DNA from: a phage
NCBI GenBank assembly: GCA_031490075.1
Contig: GCA_031490075.1_4354.1
Strand: one strand, 5' to 3'
Length of the DNA stretch: 44,632 nt
Positions 1,911 through 44,632 of the stretch are shown here, piece by piece (position 1 is the stretch's first letter; each line of letters starts with the position of its first letter). A program made the translations under genes and the position numbers. The notes under the pieces are model-generated. The model did not search any database, was not told the DNA's origin, and saw nothing but the letters and a program-made list of their open reading frames with translations.

Positions 1911-2285
1911 TTAATGCACATACATGGAAACCCGACTCCGTAAAATTGCCATTCGTGTTCACGCTGTTTCTCCTTCCACCGTACCCACATCCGCTGAACC
2001 TCTGGTTCAGCGTAGCCATTGTCTTTCCGGAGCCGGGGTGAACCCAAACCGGCTCCGGAACCATATTTCAAACTGCCGCAAAGTAAGTCTCACTTCCTGG
2101 TAACTTGAAGCCGTTTTCAGTTCTCACCACGTTCTACTCCATCCCGCCGTGGTACACAACCATGTCTTCTAAATCCAGGTCTATAATGGTTCCTACTTTG
2201 AAGATGCCTTTAGTCAGTTCACTGTCTCTTTTTGTAACTTTAACTTCTAACATTTCGTTTTCCTCTGTCTCGTCTGTGTAAATGA

Positions 2286-2314
2286 ATAGTAGCCTATTCT
2301 ATCTTAGTGTGCAA
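2286..2314 (-). promoter_or_regulatory. Sigma70-like promoter with embedded palindrome (TTGCAC-N17-TACTAT on minus strand)
   Basis: Read on the minus strand: TTGCAC, 17-bp spacer, TACTAT; contains AATAG-N4-CTATT at 2285-2298. Confidence 0.6.
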
Positions 2315-2408: not shown

Positions 2409-2428
2409 ACGCTGCTGTGTAGCAGCGT
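2409..2428 (-). terminator. Hairpin terminator (minus strand)
   Basis: ACGCTGCT-GTGT-AGCAGCGT 8-bp stem, followed on the minus strand by a T-run. Confidence 0.5.
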
Positions 2429-2925
2429 AAGTCACTCAGTAAAATCCCAAACTATTGAACATCACACCTCCGGCGGCTCAGGTAACGGCATCCAGTGCGT
2501 TATATCACCGTGATATAAACTCTTTGCAGGCCCCAGTAGCCATCTGAATTAACACGCATAACCTCACAGCCAACAAAACAATCAGTTACAAGAACGTATT
2601 CATAAGGCTCCGGCAGCATCTCACTACACTTAATCCACTCGCCCATAAATCACCCCTTATTCATCACAGCTTGCACACCAGCTTTCCACGCCCGCCACGC
2701 GAGACGTGTCTTAACGTTCAGGTACTCTTTCTTCGAACCCTTATTAACCGGCAGACCCTCGACGACGGCCCACCGTTCGAATGCTTCTCTCATACCAGAA
2801 CCTCGCATTCATCCCGATACACGAACAATAATGACCCTTTGTACTCAACCATAAAACCATAATGGTTGCTGCTGAACGTCAGAAAAACATCACCTACCGA
2901 GATACCGAAATCTATAAGCCTGCGG

Positions 2926-3165
2926 TCAGTTATTCGAATTTTCATTAACGGCAACCTCCCTCAGAGTCGTCGGCACGAGCATCATGATTAGATGCCGTTG
3001 TGTATATACCGGGACTGTGTATCTTCCTGTCTTAATCCACCAGCCATCCTCACAGGAATCCAGTACATTGAAAACATCACCCACATTTACGCCTATGCTT
3101 TCCAGAGTATCGTCGTCGTCTTTTTCGTAGGAAACTGTGTTATCTGTAATTATGATTTGCATCAC
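2926..3165 (-). CDS. Hypothetical protein
   Basis: ORF with acidic stretch; overlaps the next ORF. Confidence 0.4.
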   Translation of the reverse strand: MMQIIITDNTVSYEKDDDDTLESIGVNVGDVFNVLDSCEDGWWIKTGRYTVPVYTQRHLIMMLVPTTLREVAVNENSNN

Positions 3166-3359
3166 TTCGCCCCTTTGAATTTAAAATTGTTGCCGATGAG
3201 TTTTAACTCATTAGCTTCGTAATAAACCGAAGAAGTTAATCCGTCCCGCCTGATATAACGGATGATATAGGACCCTGGGTATACGACAGACTCTTTTCCG
3301 ACAACACCAAAGCCATATGCTGTTTTCACCAACTGACCCTTCTTAAACATAACCATCAC
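3162..3359 (-). CDS. Hypothetical protein
   Basis: ORF directly downstream of the minus-strand promoter at 3385-3413. Confidence 0.45.
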   Translation of the reverse strand: MMVMFKKGQLVKTAYGFGVVGKESVVYPGSYIIRYIRRDGLTSSVYYEANELKLIGNNFKFKGAK

Positions 3360-3384
3360 TCCTCTGTCTCGTTCCGATAAGTGA

Positions 3385-3413
3385 ATAGTATCCTATTATG
3401 TTGGGGTGTGCAA
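3385..3413 (-). promoter_or_regulatory. Sigma70-like promoter with embedded palindrome (TTGCAC-N17-TACTAT on minus strand)
   Basis: Read on the minus strand: TTGCAC, 17-bp spacer, TACTAT; AATAG-N4-CTATT at 3384-3397. The flanking sequence is closely similar to the promoter at 2286-2314. Confidence 0.6.
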
Positions 3414-3577
3414 GATAATAGTTACGTTGCCGTTGTGATTCTTTTGTTTCTTAAAAGAGTACGCAACGCAGTGGGTGGGCGTTAGCCCACCCCAGCGGAG
3501 TGAAGTACTCTCTACCTTGCTCACGGCAACTATAGAAACTTTTAATTATCAGTGACTTGGATATTTAGGCGGGATTA

Positions 3578-3722
3578 ACAATAGACTTTGACCCTTCCGA
3601 AAGCGTCAGCGGAACTACACTCAAGTGCCTAATGGCACGCGTTGCGTTCCCTGCCGCTCCGCGGTCGCTTGCGATATCTCACAAGCTCAGTGAAGCTTAG
3701 CATATTTTCAAGTAAAAGTCAA
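3578..3722 (+). repeat. Copy 1 of a ~145-bp imperfect direct repeat (partner at 36292..36434)
   Basis: Shared blocks cccttccgaa, gcgtcagcg, aactacactca, cgcggtcgcttg, cacaagctcag, catatttt, aaagtcaa in the same order and orientation. Confidence 0.7.
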
Positions 3723-3769
3723 TACCAGTAGCATCTTTTGTATTTTAGTAACTTTGCGTGGTGTTTTGG

Positions 3770-3798
3770 TTGCTTTTACAAAGTTACCGCCTTATACT
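3770..3798 (+). promoter_or_regulatory. Sigma70-like early promoter (TTGCTT-N17-TATACT)
   Basis: Consensus-like hexamers with 17-bp spacing upstream of the first plus-strand gene; no palindrome. Confidence 0.5.
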
Positions 3799-3827
3799 TC
3801 GATACATATTACACAGGAGAGCGCGAG

Positions 3828-3998
3828 ATGACTATCAATGAAGTTGCAGAATTAATCGGCGTCACCCGCCAGACGATCAATAACTGGATTAAGAGTGGAA
3901 AGTTTCCTGATTGCAGCGTTAAAGTAATGGGGCGCCGTTTACCAGGAACATTTGACCGTAATAAAGTTGAAGCGTGGATTAAGGAGAACGTGAAATGA
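3828..3998 (+). CDS. HTH DNA-binding protein (AlpA/excisionase-like fold)
   Basis: MTINEVAELIGVTRQTINNWIKSG is a typical helix-turn-helix; ATG at 3828 with GGAG upstream. The longest ORF starts at 3738 but that would overlap the promoter. Confidence 0.65.
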   Translation: MTINEVAELIGVTRQTINNWIKSGKFPDCSVKVMGRRLPGTFDRNKVEAWIKENVK

Positions 3999-4285
3999 AA
4001 GGTGTAATTTTCCACGATAAAGAAAATGACAGTGCTTATATGGTCTATTTAGTGCAAGGTGAGTATGCGTTGTGTTTTAACGTTTCCTGTAAACTGGACT
4101 CATATTTGCCGTTTTGCGTTACAGAAGAATTGCAGTTGATTAGTCTAAGAAGACTCAGCACAATGTCGGCTTCCATCGATGTCTCCGACCACCTATCCTA
4201 CGTTTATCAGTATTTCGGGGATGAGATTGTCGCAGATTATTACCGTAAGTACGCGCATTTGATGGAATGTCTGGCTAATAGATAA
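3995..4285 (+). CDS. Hypothetical protein
   Basis: ATGA-coupled to the upstream gene. Confidence 0.45.
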   Translation: MKGVIFHDKENDSAYMVYLVQGEYALCFNVSCKLDSYLPFCVTEELQLISLRRLSTMSASIDVSDHLSYVYQYFGDEIVADYYRKYAHLMECLANR

Positions 4286-4342
4286 AAGAAGGCCCCAGCG
4301 TTAGAGCGCCGAGGCCAAATTACTTGCTGAAGGAAATACAAC

Positions 4343-6628
4343 ATGTCCGATGTAATTTTATCCTACTCGTGGTCACGCCGCAACGCGCGGGCGGGAAAAA
4401 AGGATATAAATGTCAGAACCGCACACACGGCAACACTGGACGACCTGAAAGAGTTAATCCAGCCGCTCGATGCCGTTCGCGACGGGATTAACCCTAAGAC
4501 CGCGCCCGGTTATATCACCGCCGCGTGCGACTCAACGCACAGCACCGTAAAAGACCCGGAAACTGGAGACTTTAAGCAAGCGCGTAAAGGTTTTTTCTAC
4601 CGCTGCGATGCGTCTGTAAGCAAATCGTCGCTGGCCTATCTGGATTTCGACAGCACAACACCGGAAGAGTATCAGGAAGCGGTGCGCCTGGTTAAGCGCA
4701 GCCGCCGGGCTATGTGCCTCTATACTACGGCGTCACATACCGATGAGTCTCCGCGCTTTCGCGTCGTCATGCCGCTGGCCCGTCCTGTTGAAGGCGGCGA
4801 CATCATCCGCGTTCGCCATGGATTGTTGGAACACTTCTTCAAAGGCATGGGCGCTGACCGCAGCGGGTTCACTCTTTCACAACCGATGTACCTGCCGCCA
4901 GTTGGCTCTCAGGTTATCTGGTCACGCCGCAATGACCTGGTTAACCCTGACGAGTTACTGGAGGGCATACCGGATTACGAGGTGAGCAGCGCATCGGATT
5001 ACCAGATACCGGAAGAACTGCGCACCGCGTTTACGGATGCGTTCGAGGCACTCGCGTTCGAGTATGGCGGCGTCATGACACCGCGTGGCCTGAAAATGCC
5101 AGCTACGCCGGAACACGCAGAGAACTACAGCGACCCGACCCCGCGCCCGGATGACTTCCTGCTGTGCTTCCCGCGCGAGGGGTATGAAGCGCCTAACGTA
5201 ACCATGATCCACGACACTGACATCACGGCAACCGAAGGCATGTCGCCGAAAGAGGTGTGGAAATACGTGTGCGATGCGACCGGGCTGCCATTCAGTGAAG
5301 TGGCAGAGGCTATCGGATGGGGGGCGCGTGAATCTGTTTCATGCAGCCTCGACGACCTGGAAGACGACGAGGACCCAGAGGAAGATGAGTTACCGGAACC
5401 GGTAAAGGCTGATTTCGTCGTTGAGGGGTACATGCCGTCGGATTGCATCTGGGATATTGTCGGGGAATCTGGCACGTACAAATCGTTCTATACGCTGGGG
5501 ATGATGTACCTTAGCGCCGCCGGATACAGGTTTGCTGGGGCAGATACCCAGCGTTGCCATCACTTCTATATCGACGGTGAGGGTGGCGCCACCACACGAA
5601 CACGTATTGATGCACTCGCGGCTAAATATGGTGAGGAAGGTAAAGATTATGTACATGTCATCGATATGGGCGAAATACTCGCTACGCATGGTGATAAAAA
5701 AATTCCAGCTCTAATCCGCAGGATGCGCGAAACCGCAGTGGATGAACCTATTGGCATGGTTGCCTTCGACACCCTTAACCAGACGCTGGCCCTGACGATT
5801 GATAAGTTCGACGAGAACAGTTCATCAACGGCAATCGGTATGGGTAAAGTTATCGCCATCCTGAAAGAAGTGCGCGATGCAACTAAAGCCGCTGTCGGTG
5901 TCGTTCACCATACTCCGAAGGGCGGAAAGAAAGCCCGCGGCAGTGGAGCATTGTATGCGGGTGTCGACGTGGAACTGACAATCGAACGCGCTACCGACCG
6001 TCAGATAAACGTATACCACTCTAAATTTAAGCACGGGCCTCAGCAGAAGACGGTTGGCATGGTGCTGGAGTCGGTACAGTTCCGTGAAGCGCCGCCGCCT
6101 AAAGAATACCGAGCGGTTGAGTTCCTGGGTAGCACAGAGGAATACGGCACAATCGTAAACCTGGACCTGCCTGAACCACACAAGGCGCTTGTGTTGATGC
6201 CGTGGGGTTTCGAGCCGTTCAAAACTGACGAGGAGAAAGAGCGGGAAGAAGGGTTGACGAAAGAAGGTAAAGAAAATGTACGTAAAACCGTAGAGAACGC
6301 CGTCAACAGTTCGGAGGCCACGATACTCGCGGCGTTTGAACTGGCGGAAGGAACCTACAACGGCAACGAAGGCATCACAGTCGCCGCGGCGAATAAGCTC
6401 GCACAGTCAGACCCCAACGCAAAGGAGTTTAACTCCAAAGAAGCCATAGAACGCGGGAAGATTAAGAAAATGGTTGAGGCTGGGTATCTTGTTCCGGGTA
6501 CTGACGAAAACAATCAGATAATCCCAGGCCGTTACAGACTGAACACCATGATAACAGATAACAAGATTCCGAAGACAATATACGAACCGAATGAAATGCT
6601 GACAGTGACCGAGGAGGATTTGGAATGA
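4343..6628 (+). CDS. Replication protein with RecA-like ATPase domain (putative primase/helicase)
   Basis: 761 aa; Walker A-like GESGTYKS and downstream Walker B-like acidic motif in the C-terminal half; N-terminal domain of primase-like size; position in the replication module. Confidence 0.6.
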   Translation: MSDVILSYSWSRRNARAGKKDINVRTAHTATLDDLKELIQPLDAVRDGINPKTAPGYITAACDSTHSTVKDPETGDFKQARKGFFYRCDASVSKSSLAYLDFDSTTPEEYQEAVRLVKRSRRAMCLYTTASHTDESPRFRVVMPLARPVEGGDIIRVRHGLLEHFFKGMGADRSGFTLSQPMYLPPVGSQVIWSRRNDLVNPDELLEGIPDYEVSSASDYQIPEELRTAFTDAFEALAFEYGGVMTPRGLKMPATPEHAENYSDPTPRPDDFLLCFPREGYEAPNVTMIHDTDITATEGMSPKEVWKYVCDATGLPFSEVAEAIGWGARESVSCSLDDLEDDEDPEEDELPEPVKADFVVEGYMPSDCIWDIVGESGTYKSFYTLGMMYLSAAGYRFAGADTQRCHHFYIDGEGGATTRTRIDALAAKYGEEGKDYVHVIDMGEILATHGDKKIPALIRRMRETAVDEPIGMVAFDTLNQTLALTIDKFDENSSSTAIGMGKVIAILKEVRDATKAAVGVVHHTPKGGKKARGSGALYAGVDVELTIERATDRQINVYHSKFKHGPQQKTVGMVLESVQFREAPPPKEYRAVEFLGSTEEYGTIVNLDLPEPHKALVLMPWGFEPFKTDEEKEREEGLTKEGKENVRKTVENAVNSSEATILAAFELAEGTYNGNEGITVAAANKLAQSDPNAKEFNSKEAIERGKIKKMVEAGYLVPGTDENNQIIPGRYRLNTMITDNKIPKTIYEPNEMLTVTEEDLE

Positions 6629-6939
6629 ATATTTACGATTTTATAGATAACCCGTTTAAAGCAGTGAAGGCAGGATACCGCCCGTCATACCTGACATGTG
6701 TTTCCGCTGTAAGCAACAACTGGTGGACTTTTTGTGTGTATGCAGCGGGGATTTTTGCGGAGTTTAAAGACATTTTAGACATGACGCTGGCAGAGATTAT
6801 AAAGTGCCTTTTCAAATTAATTATATCGATAACTATTGTTATAAGTTTTCCTGTAAGTGCGTGGTTTCTCGCCTGGATTCAGTACCTGAACGTGCAACAC
6901 ACTATTAAGAATTTGGAAGAACTCGATAAGTTGCTATAA
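6625..6939 (+). CDS. Small membrane protein
   Basis: ATGA-coupled to the upstream gene; hydrophobic segments; AT-rich codon usage unlike its neighbours. Confidence 0.45.
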   Translation: MNIYDFIDNPFKAVKAGYRPSYLTCVSAVSNNWWTFCVYAAGIFAEFKDILDMTLAEIIKCLFKLIISITIVISFPVSAWFLAWIQYLNVQHTIKNLEELDKLL

Positions 6940-6944
6940 AAAGA

Positions 6945-6963
6945 AAGGGGCTTTAAGCCCCTT
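6945..6963 (-). terminator. Hairpin terminator, probably bidirectional
   Basis: AAGGGGCT-TTA-AGCCCCTT with a T-run on the minus strand; sits between the convergent genes 6625..6939 and 6953..7168. Confidence 0.5.
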
Positions 6964-7168
6964 CACCTAACGCCAGCCACTTGGCGTCTACTTCCAGAAC
7001 TTCCGCCAGTTTGAACAGCGTTGCCGGGCGGACGTCCTGAGTTACTCCAAGTGCCAGTTGGTTAATCGCGCCCTGGGAAACGCCGGTCAGGGCCGCCAAA
7101 CGGCGCTGGGAGATGCCGAGTTCTTTACGGCGTTGTTCTACACGGATACCTAGTTCAGATGGTTGCAT
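6953..7168 (-). CDS. XRE-family HTH transcriptional regulator (Cro/CI-like)
   Basis: GISQRRLAALTGVSQGAINQLALG is a canonical HTH_3 motif; 71 aa; divergently transcribed from the early operon. Confidence 0.8.
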   Translation of the reverse strand: MQPSELGIRVEQRRKELGISQRRLAALTGVSQGAINQLALGVTQDVRPATLFKLAEVLEVDAKWLALGEGA

Positions 7169-7198
7169 GTCAATTACTCCTTAGTCAGTTGATATGTG

Positions 7199-7228
7199 AA
7201 TAGTACCATATTAATTATTTTAGAAAAG
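7199..7228 (-). promoter_or_regulatory. Putative promoter of the XRE regulator gene with imperfect palindrome
   Basis: Minus-strand -10 TACTAT with weak -35; imperfect site AATAG-N4-ATATT at 7199-7212. Confidence 0.35.
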
Positions 7229-7232
7229 CCCA

Positions 7233-7261
7233 TTGACATGTGAATAGTTCGCTATTATAGT
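7233..7261 (+). promoter_or_regulatory. Sigma70-like promoter with embedded palindrome (TTGACA-N17-TATAGT)
   Basis: TTGACA, 17-bp spacer, TATAGT; spacer contains AATAG-N4-CTATT (7243-7256). Confidence 0.65.
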
Positions 7262-7289
7262 TAGCCCATACCAAACGAGAGGGGCGGAT

Positions 7290-7517
7290 ATGAACACAAT
7301 AACGGGAGCCATAGCTAAAGGTTTTCTAGCAATTTTCGGAGAATCGCAGGAAGTGTGCACAAAACATAAATTTGTACTTTCTTGCGTAGTCGGGGACGAG
7401 TTTGATGGGTTCGATAAACTTGTTGTCTGCGACCATTGCGGGCAAGAAGCTATTCAACACCCAAACGGTAAATTTGAATTAATAGACGATAGCCTTACAG
7501 AAGGCGACGGCGAGTAA
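7290..7517 (+). CDS. Hypothetical Cys-containing small protein
   Basis: GAGG upstream of ATG; CxxxxxxxC and CDHC suggest possible metal binding. Confidence 0.45.
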   Translation: MNTITGAIAKGFLAIFGESQEVCTKHKFVLSCVVGDEFDGFDKLVVCDHCGQEAIQHPNGKFELIDDSLTEGDGE

Positions 7518-7541
7518 CCCAAATAAACAGGAGAATAAATA

Positions 7542-8051
7542 ATGTTAGAGAAATTCTTAGTATTACTGGAACGTTTCGTAGTTGCGCATGAACTGATTGC
7601 TGCGAACAGTGCACGCCGTACTGAACTGCCGAAGGCTATCACGGCGCCATATGGTAAAGACGTCGACAGTGGTGTCGCAGAAACTGCAACAATCACGCCT
7701 ACTGTTGTAAAAGAAGAAACAAAAGAAATCCCGGTCGAGGGTGAAGACGTAGTTGACACTAAACCGGCGGAGGAAGATAAGCCAAAACGCAAGCCGCGTA
7801 AAGCTAAAGTAGAGGAACCTGCGCCAGAACCGGAAGAAGAGAAAGAAGAAGTCGATTACAAGTCTCTGCGTGACCAGATTCAGGCCATCGACGATGCAAT
7901 TAATGAAGGTCCTAGCGATGCCGCGTGCGATGATTCTGATGAACTGCTGGAAGAGTTCACAGGTAAGAAGATGAAGATTGCCGCGATTAAAGACGAAGAC
8001 CTGGTTGAGTACCTGGAACGCCTGACAGCAATCAAGAACAAGTATTTCTAA
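7542..8051 (+). CDS. Highly acidic hypothetical protein
   Basis: AGGAG upstream; long Glu/Asp/Lys-rich low-complexity region. Confidence 0.5.
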   Translation: MLEKFLVLLERFVVAHELIAANSARRTELPKAITAPYGKDVDSGVAETATITPTVVKEETKEIPVEGEDVVDTKPAEEDKPKRKPRKAKVEEPAPEPEEEKEEVDYKSLRDQIQAIDDAINEGPSDAACDDSDELLEEFTGKKMKIAAIKDEDLVEYLERLTAIKNKYF

Positions 8052-8067
8052 GAAGAATAACTATCTC

Positions 8068-8090
8068 GCGGCCTTCGGGCCGCTTTAACT
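8068..8090 (+). terminator. Hairpin terminator
   Basis: GCGGCC-TTCG-GGCCGC followed by TTTAACT. Confidence 0.45.
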
Positions 8091-8103
8091 GAGGGTCGGA
8101 ATT

Positions 8104-8376
8104 ATGATTTACCAACTCTACCGAGCCGTCGACAGGTGGGATAACACAGAGGCGCTATGGCTATTGCGTGCTCCGTCCGGTGCGCACCAGATGGAAGAGA
8201 TGGCGTACTTAGGAAAAGTACCACGGCCTAAAGATATAGGCCGTCACGTGTCGCGGATTAAACGCACGACATTCGCCAAGCCCGACTTTTATGTCTTCGA
8301 GTCGATGTATGGATGGGCCTTACATTGCGACCACAAGACACGGCATTTAATTGACCAGTGGGAGAACAGAGCATGA
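8104..8376 (+). CDS. Hypothetical protein
   Basis: ORF; stop overlaps the next start (ATGA). Confidence 0.4.
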   Translation: MIYQLYRAVDRWDNTEALWLLRAPSGAHQMEEMAYLGKVPRPKDIGRHVSRIKRTTFAKPDFYVFESMYGWALHCDHKTRHLIDQWENRA

Positions 8377-9614
8377 TTCTAAAAGAACGAGGCGGCAATA
8401 ATGATGTACACGCCTTACTGTCACCGTCAGGCGCTAAAAAGTGGCTGTCATGCGCTGCGTCGCTGGCGTGTGAAAAAGATATCCCTAACACGTCGGGTAA
8501 AGCCGCGGTATTAGGAACCGCCATGCACACCATAGCTGAGGTCCATCTCAACGCCTATATCCGCGGCACTGCGTTGCCGTTGGAGCGTGAAGTCGGCGCT
8601 TACGTACTGGATGAAGGCAAAGGTCAGATTAAGGCGCTAATCAGCCCGATGAAAGGCGCGGTACTGATTACGGCGGACATGATTGAGCAGGTGCGCAAGT
8701 ACACCGACTACTGCAAAGCGATTATAGACGTAGCGACTTACGCCAAGCTGGAAATGCGTGTCAATCTTACTGAGGTATTGCATCCGGGGTATGAAGGCGT
8801 TGAGACGTTCGGAACCGCTGACCTCGTTGCTGTCCAGGAACTGGCAAACACTGACGAGCACATGCTCATTATCGGCGACCTGAAAACCGGGCGGCATCGC
8901 ATCGAAGCGAAAGAAAACAAGCAGCTTATGCTTTACGCTCTCGGTGTTTATCGTCGACTCAAGAGACGTTATAACATAACAACCGTTCGTCTGGTCATCT
9001 TCCAGCCTTACGCTGGGGGCGCGACAGAGTGGGACATCTCGGTTGAAGGACTGGAACTGTTCGCTAAGTTCGCACAGAAACGCGCGCTGTTAGCGCTTGA
9101 TGCGTATTTCCGTGGCAAGAAGAACCTGAAAGCGTCGGACTTCAAGCCATCGGTAGATGGTTGTCAGTGGTGCCGGTTCTCTGAACAATGCGCTGCGCGT
9201 ACAAAGACGGTTAATTCTGTACTGGCGGAAGAACTGGAGGACGACTTTGCGCTGGAACTGACGCCTGAACAACTCGTAGCTGAGTATGAGAAGTTGCCGT
9301 TGTTGCGCCAGCACATCGACAAGGTTGAGAAAGCGATGGCGGCCTCGTTGCATTCCGGTAAGAAAGTGCCGGGGTACAAGCTGGTTGAAGGCCGCCCGGG
9401 TAATCGTGCGTGGGAAGATGCAGAGAAAGTGGCTGGCAAGTATGGCATAGCGCTAATGAAGCAAGTGCTCATGACGCCAACCGAAGCGGTTAAAGTCATA
9501 CCGGAAGAAGAACTGAAAGACTTCATTACCCGTAAGCCAGGCGCACCATGTGTTGCAACGGCAGACGACAAACGTCCTGAGTGGAATAGGGTAACAGAGG
9601 AGGATTTAGAATGA
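8373..9614 (+). CDS. PD-(D/E)XK exonuclease, Cas4-like
   Basis: GDLKTGR and QLMLYAL motifs; N-terminal Cys plus C-terminal CQWCRFSEQC (C-x2-C-x5-C) typical of the Cas4/AddB-type Fe-S nuclease domain. Start placed at ATG 8373; the longest ORF starts at GTG 8358. Confidence 0.75.
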   Translation: MILKERGGNNDVHALLSPSGAKKWLSCAASLACEKDIPNTSGKAAVLGTAMHTIAEVHLNAYIRGTALPLEREVGAYVLDEGKGQIKALISPMKGAVLITADMIEQVRKYTDYCKAIIDVATYAKLEMRVNLTEVLHPGYEGVETFGTADLVAVQELANTDEHMLIIGDLKTGRHRIEAKENKQLMLYALGVYRRLKRRYNITTVRLVIFQPYAGGATEWDISVEGLELFAKFAQKRALLALDAYFRGKKNLKASDFKPSVDGCQWCRFSEQCAARTKTVNSVLAEELEDDFALELTPEQLVAEYEKLPLLRQHIDKVEKAMAASLHSGKKVPGYKLVEGRPGNRAWEDAEKVAGKYGIALMKQVLMTPTEAVKVIPEEELKDFITRKPGAPCVATADDKRPEWNRVTEEDLE

Positions 9615-9814
9615 TTCAAGTAAATGAAATGCCCACAGATAAAGATTTTGTGATGATATGGCGCTGGGGCGGTTATATCCATTCGGAATCGTTTACGTTC
9701 CTGAACGGCACGATGGTGCGATACAACCATGTGGAGGATGAATTCGAACCCGTTGATATGAATGATTTCGAGAACATAGTCCGTATTGCGAAATTTTATT
9801 TGACACCTGAATAG
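9611..9814 (+). CDS. Hypothetical protein
   Basis: ATGA-coupled to the nuclease gene. Confidence 0.4.
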   Translation: MIQVNEMPTDKDFVMIWRWGGYIHSESFTFLNGTMVRYNHVEDEFEPVDMNDFENIVRIAKFYLTPE

Positions 9815-9828
9815 TTAGCTATTATAGT
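9800..9828 (+). promoter_or_regulatory. Sigma70-like promoter with embedded palindrome (TTGACA-N17-TATAGT)
   Basis: TTGACA, 17-bp spacer, TATAGT; AATAG-N4-CTATT at 9810-9823. Confidence 0.65.
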
Positions 9829-9896
9829 TCTAATCACTGACCGGGCAGCTTCCCGGAGTAAACTTTGAAATATAAACTGAAAAGCGAGAAATCACG

Positions 9897-10523
9897 ATGG
9901 GTATTAAACTGAATCTGCGTAAAGTAAACACTGCTTGGGTTAACGTATTCGAACGCGAAAAAGACCGTGAAAACGATGATGGCTCAATCACTAAAGGTCA
10001 GTACAGCGCAACCATTATCCTGCCGTCCGACCATGCTCAAATCGATGCGCTCTACGACACTGTTTACGCTGTAGTTGAAGAAGCGTTGGGTGCTGCCGCT
10101 GCCGAGAAATGGATGAAGTCCAACTACGGCGAAGGTAAGCACATGGATAAATGCGCGATTAAAGACATTGCCGAGCGCGACAATCCATTTGAAGACTTCC
10201 CGGAGGGCTTCTACTTCAAAGCGAAAGCACAAAAACAGCCGCTGATTGTAACCTCTAAAAAAGGTGAGACTCAGGTAGAACAGGACTTCAACGTAGACGG
10301 CGAACAGATTGAAGGTGAACAGGTTTACAGCGGATGCTTAGCTAACGTAAGCGTTGAAATCTGGTTCAGCCAGAAATACAAAGTCCTCGGCGTTAACCTG
10401 CTGGCGATTAAATACGTTGGCGAAGGCAAAGCGTTCGGCGGTTCTAAAGTCGCTGCGAGCGTCAATGACCTGGAAGACGACGAAGAAGATGAAGCACCGC
10501 GCCGCGAACGTCGTCGCCGCTAA
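9897..10523 (+). CDS. Putative ssDNA-binding protein (DUF2815-like)
   Basis: Position between a Cas4-like nuclease and a family A polymerase is a recurrent phage module; acidic C-terminal region. Family call is from memory and tentative. Confidence 0.45.
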   Translation: MGIKLNLRKVNTAWVNVFEREKDRENDDGSITKGQYSATIILPSDHAQIDALYDTVYAVVEEALGAAAAEKWMKSNYGEGKHMDKCAIKDIAERDNPFEDFPEGFYFKAKAQKQPLIVTSKKGETQVEQDFNVDGEQIEGEQVYSGCLANVSVEIWFSQKYKVLGVNLLAIKYVGEGKAFGGSKVAASVNDLEDDEEDEAPRRERRRR

Positions 10524-10542
10524 TATCTTAATCAATTTAACT

Positions 10543-10565
10543 AAGGCCCTTCATTGGGCCTTTTT
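10543..10565 (+). terminator. Rho-independent terminator
   Basis: AAGGCCC-TTCATT-GGGCCTT followed by TTTTT. Confidence 0.6.
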
Positions 10566-10734
10566 ACTAAGGGTCGAAAATAATGTTTTTCTGTAAACAC
10601 GTTTATCGCTATATGAAACCGCTTCCTTGGTACGCGGATGAGTACCGGGCCGGGTACAGGCATGTGTGGATTTGCCGTGATTGTATGAAAATAAGACTCA
10701 GCGAAACGAAGGCACTGGATTTAAGGAAAAAGAA

Positions 10735-12906
10735 ATGAGCTACTTATACCTGGACTTTGAAACATTCTCCGAAGCCGATTTAAAGAAAGTCGGTTCCTAC
10801 GCTTACGCCGAACACCCAACCACCGAAGTGCTTATCTGCACATATGCTTTTGACGACGAGCCTGTACAGGTATGGGATTGCACAGACGGCAGCGACATGC
10901 CGGGGGATTTGCACCGCGCACTGCGCCGCCTGGTGAAGCCGAACAGTCGTATTAAGACGGTGTGGCACAACGGCTCAATGTTCGACAGGCTCATCATGAA
11001 ACACTGCTGGGGCTTTGATATTCCCGTAAGCAACACCATTGATACGATGATTTGGGCGTTTCGTCACGCGCTGCCGGGTTCACTTGACGCATTGTGCGAA
11101 GTGCTTGGCGTGTCCGCCGACAACGCGAAAGACAAACGAGGCAAGGCGCTGATTCAGCGTTTCTCTAAACCGACGCCGAAGAACTACAAAATCCGCCGCT
11201 ACACCGCTGAAACACATCCCGATGAGTGGGCGCTGTTCATCAAGTATGCCGTTAGCGACATTACTGCGATGCGTGAAGTCTTCCATAAGCTGCCGCGGTG
11301 GGGTAACTCGGAGTTCGAAGACCGTGTACTGGAACTGGACCAGTTAATCAATGACCGTGGGTTTAAGGTTGACGTCGCGCTGGCGGAAGCTGCAATTGAA
11401 GCTGTGGAGAAACACAAGGCGCAGTTACAGGAAGAAGCCCAACGCAAATACGGCGGCTCACTTACCGGTAAAGACTTTCTGCCTATTCTGCGTGAACTCG
11501 CCCCCGCGCACCGCATCCACAATGCACAGAAGTCGACGCTGAATGACCTTCTTGCTGATGATGATTTACCGGACGACGCCCGGATGATTATCGAAATGCG
11601 CCTCGGGGCCGCGTCAACAGCGTCCACGAAATATAACCCGCTGCTGTTAGGCCGCTCGTCGGACGACCGACGCCGCGGTTGTATCCAGTACGGTGGGGCA
11701 AAGCGTACGTTACGGTTCGCGGGTAAAGGCTTCCAGCCACAGAACCTGGCGCGTGGGTACTATCACGATGATGAACTGGATAAAGGCATTTCAGCGTTAC
11801 TTAAGGGCCGGGCGCACCGCCGATTTGACGTAGCCAAGCTGACGGCATCGACCGTTCGTAGCTGCATCATACCGGAAGCAGGGCATAAGTTTGTCGTTGC
11901 CGATTACTCTAACGTCGAAGGCCGCGGTCTTGCGTGGCTGGCGGGTGAAGACGATTTAATCGAAGTATTTGTAAACGGGGTTGATGTGTATAAGAAACTC
12001 GCATCAACGGTGTTCAATGTTGCATATGAAGCCGTAACAAAGGACCAAAGACAAATAGCCAAAGCAATGGTTCTGGGACTCGGCTACGCGGGGGGCGTCG
12101 GTGCTTTCGTCACGTTTGCTAAAAACTTAGGTCTTGATTTGAATGACATGACTAACACTTTAGACGGTACATTCCCGGACCATATTTGGGCCGCTACCGC
12201 ACGCGGATACGAATGGGCGCGTATTCAGGAAGCCAAGCGACCACCACGTCCTGGTGAAAAAGATGACCGACCCTCATATATCCTTGATAAGAAAGTTTGG
12301 CGCACCTGTGACGCTTTAAAGCGCATGTACCGGGAAGCTAATCCTGCAATAGTCCAATTCTGGCGCGATATTGAAGACGCAGCTATGGCAGCAATCCGTA
12401 ATCCGGGGAAAGAGTTCACCGCTGGCCCTCGCGGGGTTAAGTTTTCTCGCAACGTAGAAACAGACAACAACGGCAACAAAGTCGCTGGTTGGTGGTTGCG
12501 CATGACGTTGCCGTCAGGTCGCGTTATGTCATACCCGGGCGTCGGATTAAGTGTGTCGAAAGAGACAGACGAAGATGGAAAGGTGTCTACTAACGTGCGC
12601 ATCAAGTACCAGGGCGAAAACCAGTTAACCCGGCAGTGGGGCTTCCAGTACACCTACTCTGGTAAACTGGTGGAAAACTGCACTCAGGCGTTGTGCCGTG
12701 ATTTGCTGGCCAACGCGCTGCTGAACGTAGAAGCAAACGGTTATCCAATTGTACTTCATGTCCACGATGAGATTATCTGCGAAACTCCAGATACGCCGGA
12801 ATACAATGTCGCAGAGCTTGAGCGATTGATGTGCGAATTACCAGAATGGGCGGAGGGGTTCCCTCTTGTAGCGGAAGGTCAGGAGTTAAAACGCTATGCT
12901 AAGTAA
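10735..12906 (+). CDS. DNA polymerase, family A, with 3'-5' exonuclease domain
   Basis: LDFETFS (exonuclease motif), DYSNVEGRGLAW (motif A), RQIAKAMVLGLGYAGG (motif B), VHDEI (motif C). ATG at 10735 with AAGGAAAAAG upstream; the longest ORF begins at TTG 10681. Confidence 0.9.
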   Translation: MSYLYLDFETFSEADLKKVGSYAYAEHPTTEVLICTYAFDDEPVQVWDCTDGSDMPGDLHRALRRLVKPNSRIKTVWHNGSMFDRLIMKHCWGFDIPVSNTIDTMIWAFRHALPGSLDALCEVLGVSADNAKDKRGKALIQRFSKPTPKNYKIRRYTAETHPDEWALFIKYAVSDITAMREVFHKLPRWGNSEFEDRVLELDQLINDRGFKVDVALAEAAIEAVEKHKAQLQEEAQRKYGGSLTGKDFLPILRELAPAHRIHNAQKSTLNDLLADDDLPDDARMIIEMRLGAASTASTKYNPLLLGRSSDDRRRGCIQYGGAKRTLRFAGKGFQPQNLARGYYHDDELDKGISALLKGRAHRRFDVAKLTASTVRSCIIPEAGHKFVVADYSNVEGRGLAWLAGEDDLIEVFVNGVDVYKKLASTVFNVAYEAVTKDQRQIAKAMVLGLGYAGGVGAFVTFAKNLGLDLNDMTNTLDGTFPDHIWAATARGYEWARIQEAKRPPRPGEKDDRPSYILDKKVWRTCDALKRMYREANPAIVQFWRDIEDAAMAAIRNPGKEFTAGPRGVKFSRNVETDNNGNKVAGWWLRMTLPSGRVMSYPGVGLSVSKETDEDGKVSTNVRIKYQGENQLTRQWGFQYTYSGKLVENCTQALCRDLLANALLNVEANGYPIVLHVHDEIICETPDTPEYNVAELERLMCELPEWAEGFPLVAEGQELKRYAK

Positions 12907-13027
12907 ACTGATTATCGCGGTACTGGCGGGATTTGCCGCAGGTGTCTACTGTCACGAGGGTCAATACGGCATGATGGTTGCCATATTGGGCATGTTCATC
13001 GCAATTTATCTGTGGGTGCTGGAATGA
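12896..13027 (+). CDS. Small hydrophobic peptide (43 aa)
   Basis: First of a chain of ATGA-coupled small ORFs leading into the VRR-NUC gene; below the 60-aa cutoff of the ORF track. Confidence 0.35.
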   Translation: MLSKLIIAVLAGFAAGVYCHEGQYGMMVAILGMFIAIYLWVLE

Positions 13028-13113
13028 AAATTTACCGGTTCTACGAAGAAGACTGTCGAATCTGCCCGCGCTGCGGTATTGAGCATACCAAACGTGAGGG
13101 GTGCGTGTTATGA
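13024..13113 (+). CDS. Small zinc-ribbon-like peptide (29 aa)
   Basis: CRICPRC...C motif; ATGA-coupled on both sides. Confidence 0.3.
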   Translation: MKIYRFYEEDCRICPRCGIEHTKREGCVL

Positions 13114-13262
13114 GAATGTTTGTATTCGGGTCGATAGTAACCATGCTCGCACTGTTACTCGGTGCGGGAATAGCTGCTATGTTCTGTTACGGCCTGTTCT
13201 TTCAGTTTGCCGGTGTTGCCCTTCTAGGCGGGGCTTTCCTTACCTGGATGCCGCGGTCATGA
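13110..13262 (+). CDS. Small hydrophobic peptide (50 aa)
   Basis: ATGA-coupled on both sides; predicted membrane helices. Confidence 0.35.
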   Translation: MRMFVFGSIVTMLALLLGAGIAAMFCYGLFFQFAGVALLGGAFLTWMPRS

Positions 13263-13543
13263 CTAAAGAGGGCCGCATCCAGAAATACGCAAAAGAGCGA
13301 TTTGAGGCCCTTGGGGGCCTCGTTCGTAAACTTTCCTACGAGGGGCGTTCCGGCGCTCCCGACCTGCTGGTAATTCTCCCTGGCGGCATCGTCTGGTTCG
13401 TCGAGGTGAAGAAAGACGAAAGCACGAAGCCTGACCCGCACCAGTTACGAGAGCACGAGCGGATGCGTAAGCGTGGTGCAAATGTTTTTGTAGTTGGTTC
13501 GTTCAAACAGGTTGACACCCTAATAGCGAACTATTATAGTTAG
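13259..13543 (+). CDS. VRR-NUC domain nuclease
   Basis: PDLLVIL...VWFVEVKK matches the PD-(D/E)xK core of VRR-NUC; size about 95 aa fits the domain. The longest ORF (from 13079) overlaps the coupled small ORFs. Confidence 0.7.
   Translation: MTKEGRIQKYAKERFEALGGLVRKLSYEGRSGAPDLLVILPGGIVWFVEVKKDESTKPDPHQLREHERMRKRGANVFVVGSFKQVDTLIANYYS
13512..13540 (+). promoter_or_regulatory. Sigma70-like promoter with embedded palindrome (TTGACA-N17-TATAGT)
   Basis: TTGACA, 17-bp spacer, TATAGT; AATAG-N4-CTATT at 13522-13535. Confidence 0.65.
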
Positions 13544-13573
13544 CCATACACCAACAATATAAGGAATTGAGAA

Positions 13574-13765
13574 ATGAAACACGAATATGACCGCAAGCCA
13601 GCACGTGACATCGTACCTGGCGACATGATTTTCAACGTTAAGACCCGCCAGCCTGTTGCCGTTGATACGGTGTTCGTCGAGTCGAACGGTAAACTGGTTA
13701 TCGAAGATGTAACTGGTAACGTTACGGCGTTCGGGCGTAAAGAGCTGGTGCTGGTGGCAAAATGA
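13574..13765 (+). CDS. Hypothetical protein
   Basis: AAGGA upstream; ATGA-coupled to the next gene. Confidence 0.45.
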   Translation: MKHEYDRKPARDIVPGDMIFNVKTRQPVAVDTVFVESNGKLVIEDVTGNVTAFGRKELVLVAK

Positions 13766-14445
13766 TTGTCTGGTCATTGTTTGACGGTTCGGGCCTTATG
13801 GCCCAACCGTGGGCAGAAGCGGGCCATACTTGCTATTGTTTCAACTACGACGGTGCCGACCACGGCGACTACGCGCGATTGGGCGCAAAAGTTGAACACG
13901 AGAACATCCACTATATAAACGCGTGGATTGATAATAAGTTCGACTTCGAGGTTTCGCCAGATATTATTTTTGCGTTCCCTCCTTGCACAGATTTAGCCGT
14001 TAGTGGTGCGGCGCATTTCGAAACGAAGCGTAAGAAGAACCCAACGTTTCAGGTAGAGGCTGTTATCACATGCAAAGTGGCGGCACGCCTGGCTAAAAGG
14101 TATAACGTACCTTATATGATTGAGAACCCAGTTAGCGTCCTCTCGTCTTTGTGGCGTAAGCCCGATTATGTGTTCAATCCTTACGAATACGGCGGCTATC
14201 TACCGGAAGACGATACGCATCCAATGTTCCCTGAATACATAAAACCCCGAGACGCGTACCCTAAAAAGACATGTCTTTGGACGGGTAATGGTTTCGTAAT
14301 GCCGGTTAAGTCAGGTGTTGCCGTGGGTGATGGGTATTCTGACCAGCACAACAAACTTGGCGGTAAATCAGTGCGGACAAAAACAATCCGCAGCCTTACT
14401 CCTCGGGGTTTCGCAAAAGCAGTTTACGAGGCTAATCATGTCTAA
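13762..14445 (+). CDS. Short C5-cytosine methyltransferase-like protein
   Basis: SLFDGSG (motif I-like), FPPCTDLAVSG (PC motif with Thr in place of the usual Gln), MIENP (ENV-like); only 227 aa, so no room for a normal target recognition domain. Confidence 0.55.
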   Translation: MIVWSLFDGSGLMAQPWAEAGHTCYCFNYDGADHGDYARLGAKVEHENIHYINAWIDNKFDFEVSPDIIFAFPPCTDLAVSGAAHFETKRKKNPTFQVEAVITCKVAARLAKRYNVPYMIENPVSVLSSLWRKPDYVFNPYEYGGYLPEDDTHPMFPEYIKPRDAYPKKTCLWTGNGFVMPVKSGVAVGDGYSDQHNKLGGKSVRTKTIRSLTPRGFAKAVYEANHV

Positions 14446-15862
14446 GTTTCAAAGACGCGAGTACCAGAAGCTCATGACCTCGTTCATGCTGCAACACCCG
14501 CGCTGTAATATCTGGTGCGGAATGGGGGGAGGTAAAACCTCCTCCACTATGTGGGTGCTCAACCGCCTGTTCCGCAACGGGCAGCTTACGGAAGAGGACC
14601 GCGTGTTAATCCTTGCCCCGTTACGTGTTGCGTCCGGTACGTGGCCCGCTGAACAAGAGAAATGGCAATTCCCTTGTCTGCGTGTCGTAGATGCAACTGG
14701 TTCGGAGAAGCGCCGCATCGCAGCGCTGGAGTCAGATGCTAACGTGGTGTGCACTAACTACGAAGTTATCGAGTGGCTAATTGACTACTACGGCAAAGAC
14801 GACTGGCCTTTTACGGTTATCGTTGCCGATGAAAGCACGAAGCTTAAATCGTTCCGCAGCCGTTCGGGTGGTAGCAAGCGGGCAAAGGCGCTCAGCAAGG
14901 TTGCGTTCGGAAAGGTTAAGCGTTTCATCAACCTGACAGGCACACCGTCACCAAACGGCCTCAAAGACTTGTGGGGTCAGAACTGGTTTATCGACGCTGG
15001 CGAGCGCCTCGGCTCTTCGTACACAGCATTCACCGACCGCTGGTTTAACTCGGTACAGAAAGGTAAATCGGCTATGGCCCGCGAGTATCATGCACGACCG
15101 GGTGCGGATAATGAGATTCATCAGAAGATGAAAGACATCAGCCTGACCATAGACCCTGCCGAGTGGTTTGGTTGTGAAGCGCCTGTTATCGTACCGGTGG
15201 AAATAGACCTGCCGAAGAAAGCGCGTCAGGCGTACATAGATATGGAGGAGAAGTTATTCGCAGAACTGGAGAGCGGGGAAGTTGAAGCGGCTAACGCTGC
15301 GGCGAAGACCTCAAAGTGCTTGCAGATTGCATCTGGTGCTGTATATGTATCCGGGCCAGACGGCGAAGCAACCAAAGAATGGGAGAAAGTGCACGACACG
15401 AAACTGGATGCGCTCGAGTCGATTGTTGAGGAGTTGCAGGGTGCGCCGTTGCTGGTAGCCTATCAGTTTAAACACGAACTGGAGCGTATCCTTAAGCGAT
15501 TCCCACAGGCACAGGCGTTCGCCAAAGGCGCCAGGGGGAACAAGCAGATGGAAGCGTGGAACCGTGGGGAAATCGAGATTTTATGCGTGCATCCTGCGTC
15601 AGCCGGGCATGGTTTGAATTTACAGGACGGGGGTCATCATCTGGCGTTCATCTCGCAAGGCTGGAACCTTGAGCACTATTTGCAGGTTGTTGAGCGCATA
15701 GGCCCAGTCCGCCAGAAACAGGCGGGTCACGAGCGCCCGGTGTTCCTTTATCACATCGTTGCTAAAGACACTCTGGACGAGGTTGTCGCCGCGCGTACCG
15801 ACGAGAAGAAATCGGTACAGGAAGAGTTGCTTAATTACATGAAGAGACGAGGTAAGAAATGA
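14438..15862 (+). CDS. Superfamily 2 helicase (SNF2/DEAD-like)
   Basis: Walker A GMGGGKTSS, DExx box VADEST, C-terminal helicase motifs; ATG at 14438 overlaps the upstream stop. Confidence 0.8.
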   Translation: MSKFQRREYQKLMTSFMLQHPRCNIWCGMGGGKTSSTMWVLNRLFRNGQLTEEDRVLILAPLRVASGTWPAEQEKWQFPCLRVVDATGSEKRRIAALESDANVVCTNYEVIEWLIDYYGKDDWPFTVIVADESTKLKSFRSRSGGSKRAKALSKVAFGKVKRFINLTGTPSPNGLKDLWGQNWFIDAGERLGSSYTAFTDRWFNSVQKGKSAMAREYHARPGADNEIHQKMKDISLTIDPAEWFGCEAPVIVPVEIDLPKKARQAYIDMEEKLFAELESGEVEAANAAAKTSKCLQIASGAVYVSGPDGEATKEWEKVHDTKLDALESIVEELQGAPLLVAYQFKHELERILKRFPQAQAFAKGARGNKQMEAWNRGEIEILCVHPASAGHGLNLQDGGHHLAFISQGWNLEHYLQVVERIGPVRQKQAGHERPVFLYHIVAKDTLDEVVAARTDEKKSVQEELLNYMKRRGKK

Positions 15863-16374
15863 TGGATTTCGAAGAGTTTCTACTTAAAGCTCATCTGCTG
15901 GCGCGTGGGTTTGACGCTGACCGTCTCCAGGTAGTCTTAGCCCCTGGAGTAGCTACGTTTTACCTGTGGGGGTTTGACGGTAGGCTTCGCGGATACCAGC
16001 ATTACAAACCACATGCCGAAAAGAACTGTAAAAACCCTAAAGACGCGCGGTACTTTACCAGAACAACAAGGCCGTGTTTATGGGGGCTTGAGTATTTGCC
16101 GGAAAGCGGGGTGGTATTTGTTACCGAAAGCATATTCAAAGCCGTAGCCTTGATGAATTGCGGGTTCAATGCTGTAAGCGCACTGGGGTCAAATATATCA
16201 ACAGACCTACGGCAGCAAATGTCACTTTTGCCGTATGACTGGGTGTGCGCTGGCGACAATGATAAAGCTGGATTAAAGTTCAGCAAAACATTCACCAGAG
16301 GATTTGTATCTAACGACCTTGATGAACTTTGTGAAGAAGAAATAACGTATCTTGCGAGGAAATTTACCAGATGA
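15859..16374 (+). CDS. Toprim domain protein (primase-like)
   Basis: VFVTESIFKAV ... AGDNDKAG resemble Toprim acidic motifs; ATGA-coupled to the helicase. Confidence 0.55.
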   Translation: MMDFEEFLLKAHLLARGFDADRLQVVLAPGVATFYLWGFDGRLRGYQHYKPHAEKNCKNPKDARYFTRTTRPCLWGLEYLPESGVVFVTESIFKAVALMNCGFNAVSALGSNISTDLRQQMSLLPYDWVCAGDNDKAGLKFSKTFTRGFVSNDLDELCEEEITYLARKFTR

Positions 16375-22894: not shown

Positions 22895-22929
22895 TTGCCA
22901 AACAGCGCGTCGTCGAATAGCATGCTATT
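22895..22929 (+). promoter_or_regulatory. Putative promoter with palindrome upstream of the endonuclease gene
   Basis: TTGCCA-N17-TAGCAT with AATAG-N4-CTATT at 22916-22929. Confidence 0.45.
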
Positions 22930-23699: not shown

Positions 23700-23724
23700 A
23701 TTATGGCCCGAAAGGGCCATATTA

Positions 23725-26775: not shown

Positions 26776-26884
26776 TCTTTAATCCTTTGGTTAAGAGGTT
26801 ACGGGTTAACGATAAATGCGCCAGACGGGAACCACCCGCTTTTCGTGTGCGACACTAGGCGCAAAAATTATTCTACCACAATAC

Positions 26885-26913
26885 TTGCACACCCCAATAT
26901 AATAGGGTACTAT
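26885..26913 (+). promoter_or_regulatory. Sigma70-like promoter with embedded palindrome (TTGCAC-N17-TACTAT)
   Basis: TTGCAC, 17-bp spacer, TACTAT; AATAG-N4-CTATT at 26901-26914; GGAGGGG SD follows. Confidence 0.65.
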
Positions 26914-26943
26914 TCACTTACACCAACAATGGAGGGGTTTAAA

Positions 26944-27135: not shown

Positions 27136-27172
27136 GCTAGTATAGGACAAATCCTAAGCACGAGGAATAAAC

Positions 27173-34899: not shown

Positions 34900-34901
34900 T
34901 A

Positions 34902-35603: not shown

Positions 35604-35685
35604 AGTCAGTATGTCCCCTGGACGTTGGAACCCGGGCCACCCGGATTTACATGTCAAGAATAAATTATTCCAACATGCAAGGCAA

Positions 35686-36291: not shown

Positions 36292-36434
36292 CAATAGAGT
36301 ATGGCCCTTCCGAACGCGTCAGCGTAACTACACTCAGGACTTACGTCCCGCTCCGTTACCTGCCCGCGCCGCGGTCGCTTGTTCATACTTCACAAGCTCA
36401 GGTGGAGCTTATCATATTTTTAGTGAAAAGTCAA
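36292..36434 (+). repeat. Copy 2 of the ~145-bp imperfect direct repeat (partner at 3578..3722)
   Basis: Same conserved blocks in the same order as copy 1. Confidence 0.7.
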
Positions 36435-36500
36435 CTATTCGAATAGTTTATTCCAACATTTACAATTTAGTGGAATAACTGGAATACATAAACAAATAGT

Positions 36501-36529
36501 TTGCGCACCCCGATATAATAGGGTACTAT
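36501..36529 (+). promoter_or_regulatory. Sigma70-like promoter with embedded palindrome (TTGCGC-N17-TACTAT)
   Basis: TTGCGC, 17-bp spacer, TACTAT; AATAG-N4-CTATT at 36517-36530; GAGGAGG SD follows. Confidence 0.65.
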
Positions 36530-36556
36530 TCATTCTATCGAACCGAGGAGGCCGCC

Positions 36557-36978: not shown

Positions 36979-37051
36979 CAAATAGTGTGATGTTTTATGT
37001 TGTTTTGTTGGTATCGGCTGCGGTTATCACCGCGATGTTCATACAAAAATA

Positions 37052-44581: not shown

Positions 44582-44610
44582 AATATAATAGGGTCGAGGA
44601 TAATAGTCAA
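44582..44610 (-). promoter_or_regulatory. Sigma70-like promoter (TTGACT-N17-TATATT on minus strand)
   Basis: Consensus-like hexamers with 17-bp spacing reading leftward into the small-gene block. Confidence 0.5.
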
Positions 44611-44632
44611 CTAGTCATCACAGAAAATAGAT

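Follow-up and report, generated by a model that had tools for sequence, protein, structure and literature searches.

The DNA analysed here, hereafter 'the window', is a phage contig of 44,632 nucleotides (nt; GCA_031490075.1_4354.1 of the GenBank assembly GCA_031490075.1), and our subject is a small regulatory locus close to its 7-kb mark. The locus consists of a leftward gene for a 71-amino-acid (aa) helix-turn-helix (HTH) protein of the XRE family, hereafter XRE, the 121-bp intergenic region (7169–7289) between this gene and a rightward operon, and two 14-bp dyads within that region, which we propose to be operators and call O1 and O2 (Table 1). An earlier note on this DNA had described a regulator with divergent palindromes, and both are real: the open reading frame (ORF) encodes an HTH_3 protein, the site at 7243–7256 (O2) is perfect and that at 7199–7212 (O1) has one mismatch. 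The strong plus-strand early promoter that the note placed divergently from the regulator is likewise present (TTGACA-17-TATAGT, 11/12), and O2 lies in its spacer. O1 covers the −10 or the start region of either candidate XRE promoter: the best-scoring one (Table 1) and an alternative whose −10, TACTAT, is the reverse complement of 7200–7205 and falls inside O1. The counterpart promoter of the Jerseyvirus SE2 (TTGCGT-17-TACTAT, read by eye from the sequence) overlaps the O1 equivalent. From the positions of O1 and O2, a dimer bound to them would be expected to obstruct both of the divergent promoters. Each of them also lies within one copy of a 25-nt direct repeat, the second copy of which (7233–7257) is 84% identical to the first at a spacing of 44 bp. 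The signal is the dyad and not the direct repeat, since the repeat word ATGTGAATAGT, rejected as a signal, is not enriched (12 occurrences in the window versus 9.8 expected). An Rfam scan of 3300–7400 returned zero matches.

Sequence, predicted fold and inferred operator geometry all identify XRE as a putative 434-Cro-type repressor. The protein matches HTH_3 (PF01381) in Pfam with an E-value of 3.9e-13 (49.7 bits against a cutoff of 23) as well as transcriptional-repressor families in PHROG. In a phmmer search against the PDB the top matches are 434 Cro and the N-terminal domain of the 434 repressor (E 5e-6 to 1e-5, full length), and the alignment places a Gln at the opening of the recognition helix and an Arg-Pro after this helix in both XRE and 434 Cro. 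The AF2 model has five helices (residues 5–17, 21–28, 32–39, 48–57 and 62–66; mean pLDDT 77); its best Foldseek match is 2cro (40% identity, TM 0.70/0.75, rmsd 2.1 Å), followed by SinR, HipB, C.AhdI and P22 C2. The assignment to the Cro/CI type, for which the earlier note had suggested structure prediction as a check, is therefore upheld both by sequence and by predicted fold, 434 Cro being the best PDB match in each case. The further claim that this is the only recognisable regulator of the type stands insofar as there is no XRE paralogue elsewhere in the window; XRE is, however, not the only HTH protein, as a second one, of the HTH_17 family, is encoded at about 3828–3998. The recognition helix of XRE, GVSQGAINQLALG, is unchanged in homologues down to 77% identity. 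At its 3′ end the gene is parted from the convergent gene 6625–6939 (+) by a hairpin that is probably a bidirectional terminator. We also considered and dropped a toxin–antitoxin or restriction–modification (R-M) controller reading of XRE: no toxin or R-M gene adjoins it.

The O2 sequence belongs to a motif, AATAG-N4-CTATT, that is strikingly over-represented. The window holds 8 perfect copies versus 0.035 expected (200 shuffles, maximum 1) and 11 copies at up to one mismatch versus 1.05 expected, while dyads with two mismatches are at background (15 versus 15.9 expected). In an unbiased enumeration of all 5+5 dyads in the window the motif ranks first, and the other dyads found enriched are stems of G+C-rich terminators.

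Almost every copy of the motif falls on a promoter core (Table 1). In what we call class A promoters, TTGACA-n4-AATAGnnnnCTATT-ATAGT at 7233, 9800 and 13512, the dyad occupies the spacer; these three promoters, all in the replication arm, are the best sigma-70 matches in the whole window. Class B promoters are defined by a ~35-nt element, cTTGCrCACCCCrAyATAATAGGnTACTATTCAy, in which the dyad lies over the putative −10, TACTAT; the element occurs at 3384(−), 2285(−), 26901(+) and 36517(+), and the copy at 22916(+) is similar. The same dyad is thus found in two promoter classes in a different register relative to the −10. The earlier note had held that the promoters of the insert genes carry the same site as the control region. 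This is correct for 22916, 26901 and 36517, and the set of sites is wider than the note supposed, as it includes the early and replication promoters at 7233, 9800 and 13512 and the leftward ones at 3384 and 2285.

Table 1. Features of the XRE locus and dyad sites elsewhere in the window (window positions; +, − or. for no strand).
Feature	Position	Strand	Basis or remark
XRE/HTH_3 protein gene, 71 aa, 434-Cro-like, proposed repressor	6953..7168	−	ORF, Pfam, PDB, fold
Ribosome-binding site of XRE gene, AAGGAG	7177..7182	−	Sequence; kept in 37/37 related loci
G+C-rich hairpin with T-runs, likely bidirectional terminator	6944..6964	.	Terminator scan; overlaps XRE stop codon
O1 (proposed operator), AATAGTACCATATT	7199..7212	.	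XRE-proximal; one arm mismatch (A for C at 7208)
O2 (proposed operator), AATAGTTCGCTATT	7243..7256	.	Spacer of + early promoter; perfect 5-bp arms, non-palindromic 4-bp centre
First copy of 25-nt direct repeat TTGAyATGTGAATAGTnnnnTATTA	7189..7213	+	Repeat search; promoter–operator module with degenerate −10
Early promoter, TTGACA(7233–7238)-17-TATAGT(7256–7261), 11/12	7233..7261	+	Promoter scan; serves 7290 onwards
Candidate XRE promoter, TTCACA-16-TAAAAT, 10/12	7217..7244	−	Back-to-back with −35 of + promoter
First gene of rightward operon, 75 aa, phrog_32657, four Cys	7290..7517	+	ORF, PHROG; in a subset of relatives only
HTH_17 (Xis/MerR-like) protein, rival candidate binder	~3828..3998	+	Pfam HTH_17 E 1e-9, in ORF 3738–3998; outside the proposed circuit
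Proposed operator upstream of ssDNA-binding and DNA polymerase genes	9810..9823	.	Spacer of TTGACA(9800)-17-TATAGT
Proposed operator upstream of resolvase/helicase block	13522..13535	.	Spacer of TTGACA(13512)-17-TATAGT
Proposed operator at leftward class B promoter	3384..3397	.	Over −10 (TACTAT); TTGCAC at 3413–3408
Proposed operator at second leftward class B promoter	2285..2298	.	Over −10
Proposed operator at promoter of reverse-oriented insert gene 22953–23699	22916..22929	.	Gene T5orf172/CapR endonuclease-like
Proposed operator at reverse-oriented insert (superinfection-immunity protein, phosphoesterase, PNK phosphatase, others)	26901..26914	.	Over class B −10
Proposed operator at insert ~36557–36978	36517..36530	.	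Over class B −10
One-mismatch site, AAAAGTCAACTATT	36426..36439	.	Overlaps/encloses TTGACT −35 on − strand
One-mismatch site, AATAGTCAACTAGT	44602..44615	.	Encloses −35 of − promoter TTGACT-17-TATATT (10/12), ahead of packaging genes

The window is a Kagunavirus (Guernseyvirinae) genome, from an E. coli phage: over 6600–7600 it is 85–100% identical to many Kagunavirus records, and it is syntenic with SE2. The region of about 1 kb around XRE is 100% identical to Escherichia phage vB_EcoM_SHAK7858 (OR594183.1) and 85–99% identical to well over a hundred Kagunavirus records. Across the genome, the window and OR594183.1 are ~88–99% identical in blocks and ~95% overall and are therefore related yet different genomes; because the complete identity is only local, we used the annotation of OR594183.1 as a guide only. 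A footprint set assembled from 37 IMG/VR Kagunavirus contigs and the window (38 sequences) covered three sites: O1, O2 and the 9800 site. Every contig that covers one of these sites has it, and the imperfect arm of O1 is retained unchanged. There is next to no variation in the arms, whereas the centre is free to vary: the minor-allele fraction is 0.000–0.003 in the arms and 0.01–0.12 in the four bases of the centre. Variation, including a 1-nt insertion or deletion, is also seen between the −35 and the left arm. A 14-bp dyad with conserved outer arms and a free centre fits the geometry of a 434-type operator, which is 14 bp long (ACAA-N6-TTGT), with conserved outer bases and a variable, non-contacted centre.

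The dyad extends beyond the genus. In SE2, whose XRE is 48% identical in the same syntenic position, there are three perfect and four one-mismatch dyads versus 0.03 and 1.3 expected, respectively, and at least four of them stand upstream of blocks equivalent to those of the window: the early operon beside XRE, the ssDNA-binding/polymerase genes, the resolvase and the superinfection-immunity insert. SE2 also has a site of the 44602 type, AATAGTTGACTAGT, which encloses a TTGACT −35 downstream of the endolysin gene. In the Cornellvirus VSiA and the related SE1, XRE is 40–43% identical and has a different recognition helix (TQSAISH). AATAG-N4-CTATT was not found in either of these genomes; both have instead a related dyad, AWTAS-N4-STAWT, whose half-sites are mostly ATTAS. 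It occurs in 4–5 copies versus ~0.5 expected and is positioned alike within sigma-70-like promoters, one of them the orthologue of the early promoter beside XRE. These motifs come from a targeted promoter comparison, which we used in place of genome-wide enumeration at one mismatch; the latter was uninformative for SE2 and the Cornellviruses, being swamped by GC-rich k-mers. Two distant XRE homologues (L039 and L040) have other recognition helices and other repeats, and give no test of specificity.

The genome is organised around XRE in a simple way. A rightward replication arm runs from ~3828 to 16374 and is broken by a single leftward gene, that of XRE; a long leftward arm comprises small genes and the lysis, packaging, head and tail genes. 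Reverse-oriented inserts lie at 22953–23970, ~26944–29342, ~36557–36978 and 38737–39390. The group has been described as lytic, glycan-dependent small siphoviruses (PMC11990801). In agreement with the earlier note, which had seen no integrase or partition gene, Pfam and PHROG scans of 36 window ORFs (some small ORFs lay outside the scan) gave no integrase, partition/plasmid-maintenance or CI-type gene, and integrase and partition genes are likewise not found in the annotations of SHAK7858, SE2, VSiA and SE1. The note's reading of the locus as an autoregulated genetic switch does not hold in the sense of a bistable switch. We found no opposing CI-type gene, the divergent neighbour of XRE being a 75-aa or 169-aa protein of no assigned function, and no clustered tripartite operator: two sites are 44 bp apart and the others are dispersed at at least eight promoters.

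Taken together, it is probable, on the evidence of sequence comparison, that XRE is a 434-Cro-like, dimeric and negatively autoregulated global repressor whose operator is AATAG-N4-CTATT. Its most likely role is that of a global, self-limiting brake on phage transcription and not of a switch to lysogeny. What we observed directly is the family of the protein and its fold, and the positions, enrichment and conservation of the sites. That XRE binds the dyads, represses by binding them and sets the timing of transcription is what we infer, and the circuit would work as follows. After infection, host sigma-70 RNA polymerase would start at the strong class A and other near-consensus promoters as well as at the XRE promoter. 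As XRE accumulates, its dimers would occupy the perfect dyads within promoter cores and thereby keep the polymerase out, from the spacer in class A (7233, 9800 and 13512) and from over the −10 in class B (3384, 2285, 26901, 36517 and 22916); with the 44602 and 36426 dyads over the −35, sites would be available at essentially every recognisable promoter. This would turn down transcription in the early and middle phases as well as the insert (moron) genes. O1, weaker and imperfect in a conserved manner, overlaps XRE's own promoter, so that XRE would limit its own synthesis, and would do so at higher concentration only. This would be a Cro-only circuit, with neither a CI partner nor lysogeny, in a phage group reported to be virulent. 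In agreement with an early role, only four genes of the Kagunavirus K1B4 were classed as early by RNA-seq, and one of them has an HTH domain (PMC12645636); we equate it with XRE by gene order only.

Several observations weigh against this model. The −35 of the best-scoring candidate XRE promoter is not kept in relatives, and the operon 3828–6939 (HTH_17, helicase-primase) has no sigma-70-like promoter and no dyad that we could recognise. The K1B4 time course is coarse, and the immunity gene driven by class B is called 'late' in that study (PMC12645636). Promoters ahead of lysis and structural genes also carry dyads, so late expression needs another route: partial repression, readthrough, activation at some of the sites or another factor could provide it. 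In VSiA and SE1, the XRE-proximal promoter copy fits only a looser, one-sided ATTAS-N4-GTAT (3–4 copies versus 0.4–0.7 expected), and the Cornellvirus dyad is merely pseudo-symmetric, its motif having been defined post hoc from the data. The apparent tracking of XRE by the dyad, in diverged form, where the HTH_17 protein is absent is supportive for this reason and not decisive. Lastly, the HTH_17 protein and the exact AATAG dyad are found together: both are present in Kagunavirus and Jerseyvirus, and neither in Cornellvirus.

This co-occurrence leads to the alternative that the dyad is a real operator bound by the phage HTH_17 protein or by a host regulator, with XRE recognising something else or its own promoter only. 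Homologues of HTH_17 occur in exactly the genera in which AATAG-N4-CTATT is enriched and are absent from VSiA and SE1, where it is not; moreover, a long non-coding region precedes the HTH_17 gene, and the 3384 dyad is found at the far end of this region. Nevertheless, two dyads adjoin the XRE gene itself, and Cornellvirus-type genomes keep a related dyad at orthologous promoters despite having no HTH_17 homologue. The mode of binding does not fit well either: direct or phased repeats, occupied by monomers or filaments, are the usual targets of HTH_17/Xis-type proteins, and not 14-bp dyads in 17-bp spacers; MerR-type spacer binding goes with spacers of 19–20 bp, which were not seen here. As for a host protein, we know of no E. 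coli regulator with an AATAG-N4-CTATT consensus. We consider this alternative unlikely. It is more improbable still that there is no regulator at all and that the dyad is merely the inherited sequence of a duplicated promoter family, even though class A promoters share more than the dyad (TTGACA...GAATAG...CTATTATAGTT) and O1 and O2 sit in a duplication-like 25-nt direct repeat. The dyad is symmetric and recurs in two or three otherwise unrelated promoter classes, and since its register relative to the −10 differs between them, promoter ancestry alone is no explanation. Furthermore, the arms are invariant while the centre and adjacent spacer bases drift, the dyad is kept between genera whose proteins are ~50% identical, and sigma-70 does not constrain the spacer positions that the dyad occupies.

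A different possibility retains XRE as the binder of the dyads and reinterprets its purpose: XRE would be an immunity-type repressor that silences the genome, giving a non-integrated carrier or pseudolysogenic (episomal) state, and would form a rudimentary lysis/dormancy switch together with HTH_17. The presence of dyads at essentially all recognisable promoters is compatible with such a role, as is the deposition of a complete Kagunavirus genome as a circular 44-kb 'plasmid' (CP088689.1, pC16EC0033-2 in PLSDB; 44,086 bp, non-mobilizable) of an E. coli blood isolate. This record, of which we looked at positions 2414–8396, corresponds in size and in local gene content to a full Kagunavirus genome, and it matches at 97.6% identity a 3-kb query that includes XRE (window 6600–9600); it could reflect either a carrier state or contamination of the culture. 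Turbid plaques and immune, possibly episomal 'lysogens' have also been reported for the Jerseyvirus SGP-C, in which the homologues are called Cro and cI-like (PMC8790156). Against this, the group is described as strictly lytic (PMC11990801, PMC9787291), and no integrase, partition or CI-like gene was found among the ORFs scanned. Neither did we find any Kagunavirus DNA in 5,426 complete E. coli genomes nor any close XRE homologue in 185,579 GTDB representative genomes. At 71 aa, XRE lacks a cleavable or oligomerising C-terminal domain. Immunity repressors normally diversify, and the invariance of the recognition helix and the operator arms across 38 phages, together with the sharing of both by two genera, is the opposite of heteroimmunity diversification. 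On balance we regard an immunity role as unlikely, and as equally so the specific scenario in which a site in every promoter and a weak one on XRE's own promoter let a nominally virulent phage that has no integrase pass reversibly into an episomal state with the whole genome silenced.

The proposed Cro-only repressor has clear counterparts among known regulators. 434 Cro is also 71 aa long, has the same five-helix HTH_3 fold and is 36–40% identical to XRE over 60–70 aligned columns; it too has a 14-bp operator overlapping core promoters, through which it represses both its own and the divergent transcription. The CI partner, the OR1–OR3 tripartite operator and the lysogeny of 434 have no counterpart in the XRE system; half-sites are AATAG-N4 here and ACAA-N6 in 434; XRE has a two-residue insertion in the loop between helices 3 and 4; and the sites are dispersed at 8–11 or more promoters of a virulent genome, whereas 434 has two operator clusters. 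The closest relative of XRE outside Guernseyvirinae, gp29 of Hafnia phage vB_HpaM_Meifeng (44% identical), is a small Cro whose gene diverges from a CI-like one, and between the two genes lie three 14-bp operators, ACAG-N6-CTGT; the 226-aa CI-like repressor and the three clustered operators of Meifeng both lack a counterpart in the window. The R-M controller (C) proteins C.AhdI, C.BclI and C.Esp1396I are likewise small, structurally similar XRE dimers (1y7y, 2b5a; TM ~0.7). C proteins bind two adjacent dyads of unequal affinity in their own promoter, which results in delayed, self-limiting expression; their target is a single operon, first activated and later repressed, whereas in the window one dyad recurs in many promoters and R-M genes are absent. 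A functional analogy is offered by p4 and p6 of phi29, in which an early phage DNA-binding protein shuts off strong early promoters of the host polymerase with no lysogeny involved, although fold and DNA architecture are unrelated and p4 also activates the late promoter, whereas XRE is proposed to repress.

Several further observations concern the surroundings of the sites. Copies of the class B element span 2278–2325, 3377–3420, 26880–26925 and 36497–36540; their sigma-70 match is only 7/12, yet their conservation is well above what a promoter needs, and the GCACACCCC part of the element may be a site for another factor. The 36426 dyad is overlapped by an everted perfect palindrome, ACTATTCGAATAGT (36434–36447), in which the half-sites are reversed and which adjoins the insert ~36557–36978. 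Gene 22953–23699 lies in the tail module, encodes T5orf172/MUG113 and CapR domains and is served by a dyad-bearing promoter of its own; SHAK7858 lacks it at this place. The HTH_17 gene and the leftward promoter at 3384 are separated by ~430 bp of non-coding DNA (3398–3827) with several inverted repeats, a stretch that could hold an origin, a pac site or an unusual promoter. Directly after the early promoter most relatives have a 169-aa gene (window 7542–8051), and the 7290–7517 slot is variable cargo. In VSiA (34210–37005) and SE1 (4112–7147), the orientation of the helicase-primase segment is opposite to that in Kagunavirus and Jerseyvirus, so XRE leads an operon running into helicase-primase in these phages. 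In OR594183.1, which is filed as Autographiviridae/Kayfunavirus yet is a Kagunavirus siphovirus genome, the XRE gene (32743–32955) is unannotated, and a 31-aa ORF on the wrong strand (window 7058–7153, +) is called instead.

In the records of many relatives, the XRE gene is labelled 'transcriptional repressor', 'Cro' or 'DicA', and this annotation was already known. The literature on Jerseyvirinae, Guernseyvirinae and Kagunavirus gave us gene annotations only and no description of an operator, promoter classes, a promoter consensus or a regulon. Because the mechanism is of a standard Cro type, the conceptual gain would be modest unless the carrier-state reading were true, in which case a silenced episomal state would account for the 'plasmid' form of a Kagunavirus from a clinical isolate and for the 'lysogens' with turbid plaques reported in a Jerseyvirus. 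When small siphoviruses are isolated for therapy and biocontrol of E. coli and Salmonella, Guernseyvirinae (Kagunavirus and Jerseyvirus) are among those most often obtained; in safety screens, which have no functional model to draw on, their 'repressor/Cro/DicA' gene is time and again either flagged or passed over. The proposed operator could also supply compact, orthogonal repressor–promoter parts for engineering genomes of 41–45 kb. For the biology of the group, the operator and the map of 8–11 operator-bearing promoters give a testable account of how transcription may be timed through the host polymerase only, and would explain why a lytic phage carries a repressor-like gene.

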